A stretch of DNA of 64,000 bases from Escherichia coli (GTDB taxonomy: Bacteria > Pseudomonadota > Gammaproteobacteria > Enterobacterales > Enterobacteriaceae). The notes beneath the pieces were generated by a model. The model had not been told where the DNA came from and made no database searches. It saw only the letters and a list, made by a program, of their open reading frames with translations. The DNA lies in the NCBI RefSeq assembly GCF_013122565.1, contig NZ_CP053258.1. One strand, 5' to 3'. Positions 57,269-61,143 of this stretch are shown piece by piece. The number at the start of each line of letters is the position of its first letter. Within the stretch, counting starts at the first letter, position 1. Made by a program: the position numbers and the translations under genes.

Positions 57269-57334
57269 AGAATCATATGCAGCAACCAGGTTGCTTAAGC
57301 AATATTTCCATATGAGTTAAAAGCATATTTTATC

Positions 57335-57801
57335 TCACGATTGCATATTTTTAGTGAAGATTACTTTATCCTCACCAACATCATAGTAATTGCGTATTAT
57401 CGCCTCATTGATAAAGCCCTGTTTTGTATAAAATGCGCGGGCGGCACTAAAATCGATATGGCTAGAGGTCTCTACTAAAAGTAGTCTAGCCTGTTTAATT
57501 GTGAGTTTTTTTCTATTTCGTTGATCAGCAGATGTCCCACTCCCTGGCGCTGATGGGAAGGACTGATCCAGAGCAATAATAAATTCCAGACATCATTTGT
57601 CATCACTTCAGGAGCACAATAGGCAATCCCTGCCAGTCCTAAGTGTTCTGCACTAAACCATAAATCGGCAGATTGACCTGAGAAATAATGTGTTAGTGTT
57701 TTTTGTACATGATGAAGGCCATCTTGATCAAATTGTCCACTGGCAAGCAGCATATCCAGTAATGGTTCAACATCTGAAGGTTTGACTGGTCGTATAAACA
57801 T
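57335..57801 (-). pseudogene. GNAT-family acetyltransferase interrupted by a frameshift in an A7 homopolymer
   Basis: N-terminal 108-aa ORF carries GNAT motif A (QRQGVGHLL) and stops at 57475; the C-terminal part (IKQARLLLVETSSHIDFSAARAFYTKQGFINEAIIRNYYDVGEDKV...) continues in another frame to 57335; frames join if the T7 run at 57506-57512 (plus strand) were T8. Confidence 0.75.
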
Positions 57802-58094
57802 GGAATTCCTTATCTATTTATGAATGTTTGAAAATTGTTTGCGTGGAACACGGTCAATCTGAAGTCAATATTTTTGAGAAAGAATAGATGGGTATTTATA
57901 TAAACAAAGAAGCCATTTCTTTAAATATTAATTAAAGTATAACATTAACACCGGACTTCATTGCGACAGGACACGACAAAGCAATTTTGCGGTTTTTTCA
58001 GGGTGCATTACAAAAATTGAATCCTTTATGGACTAATGTGAGAAAATTACGAGGCATAACTATTTTGATATAGTGGACAATCAAGCGTCTCGAA

Positions 58095-58847
58095 TTAACA
58101 ATGACTTTCAGATGCTAAACCATGCAATTGGTAGTATGTCGGATATAGGACAACATTAGGAAATCGGACAGAAAATTCAGCATAATAAAATGACAACTTA
58201 TCTCTTTCTCTCACTTTCTGAGAAATTTCACAAAAGTATAAACTGAGCCAATATGCCTTTATATATAAAAAATACTCATGCTTATTTTTATCGGAAAAAG
58301 CCAAAATTGTGTCAAGTCCATCAAAAATATCTTTATCATGATTTATATGTACTCTTGATGAATTTACAATATCTTTTAATTCGCGGTAAATCTTATTAAA
58401 TAGCGCAACCGATTCACTGTTATTGAATCCATAGTTGATAAAAAGACATGATTTAACATCCGATATTAGTAAGTCGTCATAATCTATCTCAATTCCACAC
58501 AATTTCACGATATACTCAGCTATAGTATTACTTTGCAAGGACTCAACAACTGACAGTAAAACAGATGGATGCAATAATATTTCAAGAAGACTTCTGTCGA
58601 TATTTTTATACACGTTTATTGCAAATTCATCACTCGTCCCATCGATGGTGTCAGATATTAAAAAAAATACATACTCGGGGAGTTCATACCACATATTAAT
58701 TTTAATAATATCACGACACGTATCTTCTAACTGTTGTAATCTATTACCTTTATTCATAACAACCTTAATGTTATTATATGGAATCTTTAGCGTAATCTTC
58801 TTAACTCCGAGGAATTTTACTAAACCGTTGTTAGAGAAAATATGCAT
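58095..58847 (-). CDS. Hypothetical protein, 250 aa, in AT-rich island
   Basis: Long ORF in AT-rich DNA where random ORFs are rare; tandem with four other minus-strand ORFs; no family recognised. Confidence 0.55.
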   Translation of the reverse strand: MHIFSNNGLVKFLGVKKITLKIPYNNIKVVMNKGNRLQQLEDTCRDIIKINMWYELPEYVFFLISDTIDGTSDEFAINVYKNIDRSLLEILLHPSVLLSVVESLQSNTIAEYIVKLCGIEIDYDDLLISDVKSCLFINYGFNNSESVALFNKIYRELKDIVNSSRVHINHDKDIFDGLDTILAFSDKNKHEYFLYIKAYWLSLYFCEISQKVRERDKLSFYYAEFSVRFPNVVLYPTYYQLHGLASESHC

Positions 58848-59115
58848 ATCACTGACAGCGTGTTATTAATTCACTCTGGTGTTATATAACAAAAATATCC
58901 CCTCCTGTTTTCACCTCTTTGTATTCATGATAGTTAAGGGGAGTGCTAACTTAATATAACACCTGTATTTTCTCACTTTTAGCAAAAACACAAGTTTACT
59001 AAAGAACATAACATTACTGGTTAAACTGTAAAAACAATTGATAACGAAGAGCATCATAAGTTAATAATTTGATTGTTTTCAATGCATTATTACAACTGCA
59101 TTCAGAAGTATATTT

Positions 59116-59676
59116 TTACATAAAGTGTTTATTGATGATTTTTACCAGTTCATCTTTTGCAATAAGCTCTATATTTAAATTAACACACTCAACAATCTGA
59201 AGAAATGTGTCACTTAGTATATGTTCATGATCACCTTTCGTATGCATTTTGACAAAAAGGCCAAAAGATGCGCGAACAAAAGATATCTCGGGGTTATCCC
59301 ATGTAAACCATCGTACTCCACCACCTTCATTCATATACTCCCTTATTCTATGCTGTTCATTATTAAAACTTGAAAAATTAACGTTTTTTTCAAAGAAGGC
59401 ATTTTGCGCTAAAGATATTATTTTCCTGGATAATTCATTACAAACACGAGGGTTCGTGTCAAGAATAAATACCATTACATCAAGTGTAAAATGACGTATT
59501 TTATCTATATTTTTCCTTTTCATTGGTCCTAGCAATGAACCGTAAACTTTATCAATACGTTCATCAAGCAATCTTACCATATTTTTTCTTTCTATTTCGA
59601 TGTAATAATCTGGTTGATTATGTATCCCGCTATTATTTTGATGGTTCATTGTTTTAATTTTTTTGCTTTTTTTCAT
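59116..59676 (-). CDS. Hypothetical protein, 186 aa, in AT-rich island
   Basis: As above; Lys-rich N-terminus, alternative start at Met10 possible. Confidence 0.5.
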   Translation of the reverse strand: MKKSKKIKTMNHQNNSGIHNQPDYYIEIERKNMVRLLDERIDKVYGSLLGPMKRKNIDKIRHFTLDVMVFILDTNPRVCNELSRKIISLAQNAFFEKNVNFSSFNNEQHRIREYMNEGGGVRWFTWDNPEISFVRASFGLFVKMHTKGDHEHILSDTFLQIVECVNLNIELIAKDELVKIINKHFM

Positions 59677-59783
59677 TGTTACCTCGTTGTGTCATGATTT
59701 TAGTAGTGGATGAAAAATAACACCGACTCATCAGATTTTAATTAAGTTTTCATGTTGGCTAATTCGTTTGAAGAGTTACTACT

Positions 59784-60206
59784 TTATTCAATCCAGTAAG
59801 CTAGTCGCTCTCCAGAGCTTAGATTTTCCCTTTTGTAATAAAATACTGTATCGAAATTAAGTGAAATGGTTTCTGCTATAACTTTAAACTGTAATATTGA
59901 CTCGGAATAAAACTCGAGAACAATATTAGCATCATTATTATCATTGATTATTTTTAGTTTCATAAAATCATCAAGAGGATCACAAGTCCAGTACGTATCA
60001 CCACTCATGTAAGATGGTGCATTTATTATTATTTCAAAATTATGATAATAAGAAAGATCACTACTGCCAACGATAATTAATCGCCCATTACTATAGAGAT
60101 AAATTTCAAAATCTATCCAACAGTTATTTCTGTAATTACGCCTGATTTCGTCCACTACATTTTGTTGTTTCATTTTGGATACTTGTAAAATATAATTACT
60201 ACGCAT
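59784..60206 (-). CDS. Hypothetical protein, 140 aa, in AT-rich island
   Basis: As above; aromatic-rich small cytoplasmic-looking protein. Confidence 0.5.
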   Translation of the reverse strand: MRSNYILQVSKMKQQNVVDEIRRNYRNNCWIDFEIYLYSNGRLIIVGSSDLSYYHNFEIIINAPSYMSGDTYWTCDPLDDFMKLKIINDNNDANIVLEFYSESILQFKVIAETISLNFDTVFYYKRENLSSGERLAYWIE

Positions 60207-60250
60207 TGATAAAGTGATATATGATCTTATATAGGTCGCACCTGTAAAAT

Positions 60251-60583
60251 TTAAAATGTGTTAACTTCCCTTCTTAACAATACAAACCCCTCAAGGCTTA
60301 ATATTTTATTTTTTAACTCATCATGCCTGATCGTATCATTGATATAGAGAAGATAAGTATACTCAGGATAATCGACCTCATCCACTACACCATCCAAAAC
60401 ATCATAATTTTCTTTTAGAAGAAAATGTTCATGGCTTTTGTCTCCGGACAATAAATAGATTCCGCCATAATAAAGGCTTTCTTTCTCTTTAAATGTGATT
60501 TTTATTACATCTTCTAACATCTTCAGCGCATCATAGATTCCTACTCCAGAATATCCATACAAGTCATAATAACTCATTCCCAT
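60251..60583 (-). CDS. Hypothetical protein, 110 aa, in AT-rich island
   Basis: As above; 21-nt gap to the upstream ORF suggests co-transcription. Confidence 0.5.
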   Translation of the reverse strand: MGMSYYDLYGYSGVGIYDALKMLEDVIKITFKEKESLYYGGIYLLSGDKSHEHFLLKENYDVLDGVVDEVDYPEYTYLLYINDTIRHDELKNKILSLEGFVLLRREVNTF

Positions 60584-60604
60584 TTCACCTGTTTGAATTT
60601 GTAT

Positions 60605-60877
60605 TCATTTACCCTCACGGGATTTAGTAATTACATTCAGCAGTGGCTTTAAGTGTGATGTTACAAAACTATCACGCCTTTGCTCAATTATCATTTGGAT
60701 ATACTGTTTTGTATCAGTGTTACCATACTTAGCCATATAGAACATTACTGCGTCCATTATATCTCTTTCATAGTTTTCTATTGCATCAACATAGACATCA
60801 ACCAGAGTATTAACTTCTTTATTTGATGGATGTTCTGAAAGATTACTCTCAAATTGTGAGAATCTGAATCGTACCAT
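60605..60877 (-). CDS. Hypothetical protein, 90 aa (yncH position)
   Basis: First ORF downstream of yncG on the same strand; no family recognised. Confidence 0.45.
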   Translation of the reverse strand: MVRFRFSQFESNLSEHPSNKEVNTLVDVYVDAIENYERDIMDAVMFYMAKYGNTDTKQYIQMIIEQRRDSFVTSHLKPLLNVITKSREGK

Positions 60878-61143
60878 TACGATTCTCTTAGAAATATCAT
60901 TAAATACGCTACCGCCCTACCCTGATAACATGATCTGCACGGCGCTATCATATCGGTATGTTTCTCTATATGCGAAAAGATGTTTTATTTTCAGATTAAA
61001 TCAAATAGATATTTAATATAAAAAACGAAATTTCATCAATCATATAAATAGTTGTACTAACTTCAATTACCATTCATAGCAAACAAATAGACGCCCAGTT
61101 AACTTTGCCGATGATTTATTAACATTAATCTCCGGCATTATTG

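Follow-up and report, generated by a model that had tools for sequence, protein, structure and literature searches.

Gene content of the yddH-yncG interval

The stretch of Escherichia coli DNA considered here (64,000 nucleotides of contig NZ_CP053258.1, referred to below as the window) contains, between yddH and yncG, a 3.9-kb interval at 57270-61143 which holds five open reading frames (ORFs) on the minus strand and a broken GNAT gene, and it is the nature of this row of five small genes that concerns us. The original prediction had described five same-strand ORFs of 90, 110, 140, 186 and 250 amino acids in about 3.9 kb of markedly AT-rich DNA, and had recognised none of them. All of this was borne out (Table 1), the GC content being 0.311 over 57802-61143, and about 0.30-0.34 in the island, against 0.50-0.57 in the adjoining genes. 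The same bias is seen at third codon positions, where GC is 0.24-0.32 in the five ORFs and 0.47 in yncG. The short gaps that had also been described hold for some of the intergenic spaces (21 and 44-77 nucleotides) but not for those of 107 and 268-358 nucleotides. Apart from these genes, the GNAT gene included, and frames that overlap them, the interval has no ORF of 60 amino acids or more.

Table 1. Features of the interval between yddH and yncG, in window positions
Feature	Position	Strand	Description
yddH	56603..57268	+	flanking gene
GNAT N-acetyltransferase pseudogene	57342..57801	-	frameshift near 57507; 40% GC
ORF250 (= ORF220)	58095..58847	-	250 aa; all-alpha, acidic; candidate immunity protein against bacterial EndoU RNase toxins
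ORF186	59116..59676	-	186 aa; basic, soluble; candidate orphan immunity protein, partner an Rhs effector with a deaminase-like C-terminus
Mosaic junction	59740..59746		right side matches the E. fergusonii allele, left side the distal end of the 042 allele
ORF140	59784..60206	-	140 aa, probably 129 aa from Met12 (59784-60173); candidate immunity protein against Ntox30-type Rhs toxins
ORF110	60251..60583	-	110 aa, probably 108 aa from Met3; acidic; member of a large uncatalogued family of putative immunity proteins
ORF90	60605..60877	-	90 aa; soluble; candidate orphan immunity protein, partner an unnamed Rhs C-terminal toxin
Leader, yncG to ORF90	60878..61143	-	intergenic; putative promoter region of the array
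yncG	61144..61761	-	flanking gene

All five reading frames are intact in the window, although three of them (ORF250, ORF110 and ORF140) are probably translated as proteins shorter than their maximal frames. Met31 of ORF250 is the start in every homologue, giving a protein of 220 amino acids (58095-58757), hence the name ORF220 used from here on, while the internal starts most likely used by ORF110 and ORF140 are those of the NCBI Prokaryotic Genome Annotation Pipeline (PGAP) and of the homologues. An all-against-all BLASTP comparison of the five proteins gave no significant pair. None has a hydrophobic segment and three are acidic (isoelectric point 4.6-5.0), which fits cytoplasmic inhibitors of toxins that target nucleic acids.

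Direct annotation was uninformative, in keeping with the original failure to recognise the ORFs. None of the five proteins has a meaningful match in NCBIfam, PADLOC, PHROGs or Pfam, and the known immunity families in Pfam and NCBIfam (Imm1-74, SUKH/SMI1_KNR4, CdiI, Colicin_immun and others) are not represented among them. A Pfam scan of every member of three family alignments likewise gave no match, and profile searches of PDB sequences were empty. Structure was of more help for ORF140, the model of which combines a helix with a beta-sheet in a fold that matches a validated immunity protein, PIM7, the partner of the Bacillus cereus polymorphic toxin PT7 (PDB 8owu; bioRxiv 10.1101/2021.10.19.465003). 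The two share only 7% sequence identity, and their partners differ as well, that of PIM7 being a DNase with predicted delivery by a type VII secretion system (T7SS/LXG) and that of the ORF140 family an Rhs-borne Ntox30 domain. The AlphaFold model of ORF220 is an all-alpha bundle of 12 helices (pLDDT 85), for which Foldseek found no PDB match better than E 0.36. Public-database copies of the proteins are called hypothetical, with the exception of the 220-residue protein, which is named aminopeptidase in RefSeq (WP_171459403.1 and others). This name was rejected, given the all-alpha fold with no PDB neighbour and the finding that neither ORF220 nor its homologues have a peptidase domain in Pfam or NCBIfam; it is apparently a misannotation propagated across the cluster.

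The interval is also free of the genes with which immunity genes would normally be paired. Searches of the island and of the whole window by tblastn with Rhs, VgrG, PAAR, the M35 effector and ISAs1 gave nothing, and neither did searches with the EndoU and Ntox30 ends and the L010, L017 and L018 toxins that are described below. No adjacent pair among the five ORFs has a toxin or antitoxin domain in Pfam or NCBIfam. No Rhs C-terminal (Rhs-CT) or CdiA C-terminal (CdiA-CT) remnant, Rhs core or toxin fragment bounded by the PxxxxDPxGL motif lies upstream of any of the five, and the possibility that they belong to Rhs orphan toxin-immunity modules, in which a 5'-truncated rhs carries a toxin end, was rejected on this ground. 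Since the window has no toxin, Rhs or ISAs1 sequence, what remains is not a set of Rhs orphan cassettes but a bare row of immunity-type genes. Within the interval no similarity to insertion sequences or ISAs1, and no terminal repeats of note, were found. An Rfam scan gave a single sub-threshold match at chance level, and there were no other notable repeats or RNA families; a scan for terminators, itself at chance level, found no terminator-like site in the array. An imperfect direct repeat of 24 nucleotides (71% identity) has one copy at 57940-57963, at the junction of a deletion in E. coli 042, and the other at 61120-61143, at the edge of yncG; it is probably due to chance.

Toxin genes next to the homologues

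The function of the five families is suggested by the gene neighbourhoods of their diverged members, which were collected by exhaustive HMMER searches with the five proteins. The ORF110 and ORF140 families are large, the former with dozens of representatives at 50% identity, and those of ORF90, ORF186 and ORF220 are small. Diverged homologues from each of the five lie 3-15 nucleotides downstream of, or overlap, an Rhs or type VI secretion system (T6SS) toxin gene, which puts all of the families in the canonical position of an immunity gene. Three of them, ORF140, ORF110 and ORF220, were seen repeatedly with the same type of toxin.

ORF140 is 56% identical to the product of a 129-codon gene in E. 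coli A8 which overlaps the stop codon of a full-length Rhs gene within a VgrG-DcrB-Rhs island, and the end of this Rhs protein matches Pfam Ntox30 (E 4e-10). A second member of the family, P0125, begins 7 nucleotides after the end of an orphan Rhs that is likewise Ntox30, and homology between this toxin end and that of the A8 Rhs protein is clear. For Ntox30, no immunity family appears in the lists of Zhang et al. 2012 (PMC3482391). In the ORF110 family, P0121 lies 10 nucleotides after the gene of a 5356-residue RHS protein, and two more members, on the short contigs L025 and L026, each stand behind an open frame ending GTRTGPLTARDL..LGL...GR.V.FMI...APS..IP; in all, the family co-occurs with this one unnamed toxin C-terminus in three independent cases. 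The C-terminus in question (L010 about 6250-6991; L025 1-186; L026 1-162) has no Pfam or NCBIfam match and perhaps represents a toxin domain not yet described. Visual inspection shows in it a GS...D-x-D pattern (QGSAVTGRS...SDFDVAL) that is reminiscent of nucleotidyltransferase folds.

The ORF220 family is associated with EndoU. One member, P0113 (35% identity), lies 15 nucleotides after a Pyocin_S/EndoU_bacteria cassette in an Hcp-VgrG-DUF4123 island packed with toxin-immunity cassettes, and another, P0134 (26% identity), lies 10 nucleotides after a different EndoU_bacteria ORF among Rhs fragments. A relative of ORF220 (L031 6001-7206) has 401 amino acids, with N- and C-terminal extensions, and stands directly after flgN; it could be either another orphan or a fused variant. 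A closer homologue of ORF220, with 59% identity, occurs next to cusS (L019 8111-11114) in a toxin-free row of small ORFs, and the VgrG-DcrB-Rhs island of E. coli A8 also adjoins cusS. This site would be a second locus of polyimmunity type at a second hot spot.

The ORF186 homologue P0093 (58% identity, L018) begins 3 nucleotides after the gene of a 1481-residue Rhs protein, itself behind VgrG and DUF2169, which has RHS repeats and a C-terminus with an HxE...CxxC-like motif and a weak match to the YwqJ deaminases (Pfam, E 0.043); a comparison of this toxin end with PDB sequences gave nothing. The ORF90 homologue P0130 (41% identity) lies 7 nucleotides after a PAAR-DUF6531-RHS toxin gene, both being part of an Rhs orphan array (L015, L017). 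The Rhs end encoded ahead of this homologue (L017 about 6540-6994) closes with ...SHIP..., which resembles the THIP motif of Ntox30, and it may be a distant relative of that domain. For the partner toxin ends of the ORF110, ORF90 and ORF186 families, NCBIfam provided no name.

These contexts bear directly on the idea, originally thought equally possible, that the island is a small anti-phage defence system or toxin-antitoxin (addiction) module built of novel proteins. Defence islands typically show the same traits, namely AT-rich accessory DNA and short, same-strand ORFs without a known family, and the only further hints are matches of ORF90 to MAD7, all of them below threshold (E 0.002-0.013; against the PADLOC mad7 model, a score of 15 bits, E 0.0019, in an alignment that spans about 55 residues of its 504 positions). 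Yet PADLOC, Pfam and NCBIfam have no meaningful match to the five proteins and no enzymatic or toxin domain was found in them; homologues of all five families adjoin Rhs/VgrG toxin genes, with none seen in a defence or toxin-antitoxin context; and the five genes combine differently across genomes, unlike the parts of one system. The parity originally allowed to this explanation is thus lost, and we regard it as very improbable.

Alleles and mosaic structure at the site

The whole island is rare. At least 80% of the 3.9-kb query is present in 10 of 5426 complete E. coli genomes, at about 97% identity. The ORF90/110/140 part is found in 12 of the complete E. coli genomes and the ORF186-ORF220 pair in 186-237 genomes. 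Searches of plasmids by tblastn with ORF186 and ORF90 returned a mislabelled chromosome, or nothing. What other strains carry at this position is informative in its own right. In E. coli 042 the order is yncG, PAAR, VgrG, M35 peptidase, a gene for a 273-residue protein, an ISAs1 fragment, homologues of ORF186 and ORF220, and yddH, while JA0265 has two PAAR-VgrG modules between yddH and yncG. In K-12, as had correctly been stated beforehand for rhsE, ydcD, ydcC and pptA, the site is occupied by the rhsE region, the order being yncG, yncH, an RHS core remnant, IS5, a toxin-end remnant, ydcD, two ISAs1 copies (ydcC), pptA and yddH. The accompanying claim that no pptA-like or Rhs core ORF is present here was upheld too, as tblastn with K-12 pptA, ydcC, ydcD, the rhsE fragment and yncH, and with the Rhs queries, found nothing in the window. 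In E. fergusonii homologues of ORF110 and ORF140 are followed by more small ORFs mixed with ISAs1 copies in a longer array, one ORF of which carries Pfam PF28203 CDI_Immunity_Comp. There are therefore at least four different alleles in E. coli (window/PT62, K-12, 042 and JA0265) and another in E. fergusonii, which makes the site a hot spot at which type VI/Rhs toxin modules recombine. The segment from yncG to yddH is also known as the variable genomic region GR11 in extraintestinal pathogenic E. coli (PMC12928451).

The presence of VgrG modules at the locus in other strains, complete with adaptors, raises the question of whether the five ORFs might be T6SS accessory proteins, that is, adaptors or chaperones of the Eag/DcrB, DUF4123 or DUF2169 kind that remained after loss of an effector. 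Adaptors are encoded upstream of the effector, whereas homologues of all five ORFs lie directly downstream of a toxin stop codon; moreover, the five proteins have no similarity to DcrB, DUF2169 or DUF4279 proteins and match no Pfam adaptor family. An origin of this kind is hardly to be expected.

Comparison of the alleles by blastn gives the breakpoints. Window positions 59740-61946 match E. fergusonii (L005), positions 57960-59746 and 56500-57496 match 042 (L002), and positions 60899-62000 match the yncG side of 042 up to the start of PAAR. It follows from these breakpoints that a 1.15-kb block comprising ORF90, ORF110 and ORF140 has taken the place of the 5.2-kb PAAR-VgrG-M35-immunity-ISAs1' segment that 042 carries between these two points. 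The leader from 60899 to 61143 is the same sequence as that upstream of the PAAR-vgrG module in 042 and JA0265 (89-95% identity, L002 and L004), the similarity stopping at 60899, and since it is shared with these modules it could serve as the promoter region of the array.

Divergence along the interval is uneven. Between E. coli and E. fergusonii, identity is 95-96% for ORF110 and ORF140 (59784-60583 against L005 9630-10423) and 89.8% for the adjacent yncG, which suggests either that the two species have exchanged these ORFs or that the ORFs are strongly conserved. In the comparison with PT62, identity is 95-98.8% for the island and 95.6% for yncG, against 99.4-99.7% for the outer flanks (nhoA-yddH and ansP). 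The segment 57802-61761 is thus a local patch of raised divergence or recombination relative to PT62 (L001).

A probable toxin-free polyimmunity locus and its counterparts

Taking the homologues, the alleles and the absence of toxin genes together, we think it likely, with good confidence, that the island, at the rhsE/vgrG hot spot flanked by yncG and yddH, represents a heterogeneous polyimmunity locus, made up of orphan immunity genes without a toxin. The original suggestion of orphan immunity cassettes at an Rhs-type locus stands as far as orphan immunity is concerned, given the toxin-adjacent homologues of all five ORFs, the Rhs and PAAR-VgrG alleles and the fold of ORF140, but not with respect to cassettes, the genes being bare. 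The five mutually unrelated genes would encode small, soluble, cytoplasmic proteins belonging to families of cognate immunity for the C-terminal toxins borne by Rhs, PAAR or VgrG proteins of type VI secretion. ORF140 would be paired with Ntox30, a predicted RNase, ORF220 with EndoU RNase, ORF110 with the unnamed domain described above, ORF186 with a deaminase-like Rhs end and ORF90 with an unnamed Rhs end. Each protein is expected to bind and block the matching toxin when this is injected by a neighbouring cell, and the strain could thereby be protected from weapons whose genes it does not carry in the window. It is by homology and gene position only that the five are put forward as immunity genes, and expression of the array, toxin binding and protection are predictions that follow from this assignment.

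The mosaic structure also points to how the island might have arisen. Recombination at a site of toxin-module turnover would have joined the ORF90-110-140 block, which sits behind the same leader in the exact slot of the PAAR-VgrG-effector-immunity-ISAs1 segment of 042, to the ORF186-ORF220 pair, which corresponds to the end of a 042-type island. By analogy, displacement of modules as in Vibrio cholerae (PMC5361080) is the most likely process.

Several observations weigh against the polyimmunity reading. A relative of ORF220, P0108, adjoins flagellar genes (flgN) with no toxin nearby; the ORF90 and ORF186 families each have one toxin-linked context; and immunity is usually allele-specific, yet the island proteins share no more than 26-58% identity with their nearest homologues beside toxin genes. 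Promoter-like sites and hexamers are no more frequent than in shuffled sequence, and the gap of 268-358 nucleotides before ORF220 is long for a single operon. DNA of 31% GC is typically silenced by H-NS in E. coli. In addition, ORF186 is split by a frameshift in PT62 (L001 7846-8407), ORF90 is frameshifted to 50 amino acids in some E. fergusonii (L005 9450-9602), and ORF220 has a premature stop in 042.

Some of these points would be explained if the island were an inert relic, in which homologues of immunity genes left over from toxin-module turnover have been silenced, drift towards decay and give no protection today. The frameshifts and early stops in relatives, the promoter signal that does not rise above chance, the decay of the neighbouring GNAT gene to a pseudogene, the rarity of the island relative to toxin-bearing alleles, and its divergence from PT62 in excess of that of the outer flanks are all consistent with this, although yncG itself is no better conserved in that comparison. 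Against it, the five frames are intact in the window, and the ratio of nonsynonymous to synonymous substitution rates (dN/dS) is below 1 in every comparable pair (0.04-0.6), values that are based on few substitutions. The closer similarity of ORF110 and ORF140 than of yncG between E. coli and E. fergusonii also points to conservation or recent exchange and away from free decay. The relic explanation is the chief alternative, but we consider it unlikely.

A more specific version of the polyimmunity reading is possible, and it is offered tentatively. The array might be an active shield without a sword, in which a T6SS auxiliary module was disarmed when three foreign immunity genes exactly replaced PAAR, VgrG and effector and came to be driven by the leader of that module; together with the two terminal genes, they would protect the lineage against Rhs toxins of other Enterobacteriaceae. 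If this were true, the high identity of ORF110 and ORF140 relative to yncG would reflect recent exchange across species, and the locus would supply the first immunity partners for Ntox30 and for the unnamed toxin family, possibly of nucleotidyltransferase type.

Heterogeneous polyimmunity loci are a kind of locus already known, and criteria for them were given by Zhang, Aravind et al. 2012 (PMC3482391). As in those loci, the island has at least four tandem, same-strand genes of immunity type from unrelated families, the array is uninterrupted by a toxin gene or cassette, its content varies among strains, and it sits where polymorphic toxin loci recombine. It differs in that its five families are not among the Pfam Imm families, that it has two long gaps (107 and 268-358 nucleotides), and that no recombinase gene adjoins it. 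The orphan immunity arrays of the V. cholerae T6SS, which arise by sequential effector displacement (Kirchberger et al. 2017, PMC5361080), are similar in that immunity genes are kept at the effector locus after a module swap and form a mosaic with shared breakpoints. Those arrays lie downstream of a live VgrG-effector module, whereas in the island nothing is left of the delivery and effector genes, and the immunity block stands in their place behind the same leader.

Collections that consist mostly of orphan immunity genes, directed against toxins absent from the host genome, are known from other bacteria as well. Some of the acquired interbacterial defence (AID) clusters of Bacteroidales are reportedly found on mobile elements with a recombinase. 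Protection has been shown for AID clusters (Ross et al. 2019, bioRxiv 10.1101/471110), and it has been proposed for a putative T6SS and contact-dependent inhibition (CDI) immunity islet of Salmonella Typhi (Barretto & Fowler 2020, PMC7400221). The island resembles both in being made up of orphan immunity-type genes; it differs from them in lacking a mobility gene and in its gene families, and protection by it is predicted from sequence. The closest neighbours in terms of position are the E. coli Rhs elements with orphan rhs-CT/immunity modules and H-rpt (ISAs1), such as rhsE-ydcD-ydcC of K-12. The chromosomal site is the same, the DNA is AT-rich like the variable Rhs ends, and the genes are homologous to the downstream immunity ORFs, but the Rhs core, the PxxxxDPxGL-bounded toxin fragment and ISAs1 that mark such elements are all missing from the island.

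Orphan immunity arrays decide the survival of contact-dependent attack in dense communities such as the gut, and examples from E. coli have been little described. Because the same slot holds either a weapon (PAAR-VgrG-effector or Rhs) or antidotes only, the locus can serve to trace how a strain changes from attack to defence or back. Present views of polymorphic toxin systems are not altered by it, but the catalogue is extended, as the locus brings up five immunity families that neither Pfam nor NCBIfam contains and suggests pairings that can be tested, in which the ORF140 family would go with Ntox30, that of ORF220 with EndoU and that of ORF110 with the unnamed toxin end. Its main value lies in a clean series of weapon and shield alleles at one E. 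coli locus, and in being a source of uncatalogued immunity families with proposed partners.

The remaining features are peripheral to the array. The GNAT gene had been called broken from the outset, and comparison with the intact 155-residue gene of E. coli PT62 confirmed a deletion of one nucleotide in an A-run near 57507. It has weak Acetyltransf matches in Pfam and NCBIfam, is less AT-rich and probably lies outside the immunity array. E. coli 042 keeps only the 3' end of this gene because the equivalent of 57497-57959, which includes the 5' part, has been deleted there (463 nucleotides; L002 12225-12227). The gene has thus been inactivated by different routes in the window and in 042, and it is intact in PT62. 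A second AT-rich patch (GC 0.34-0.40) occurs upstream of narU at 43578-46159, where two tandem genes encode leucine-rich-repeat proteins of 421 and 417 amino acids; the counterpart of this region in PT62 is broken by IS1.

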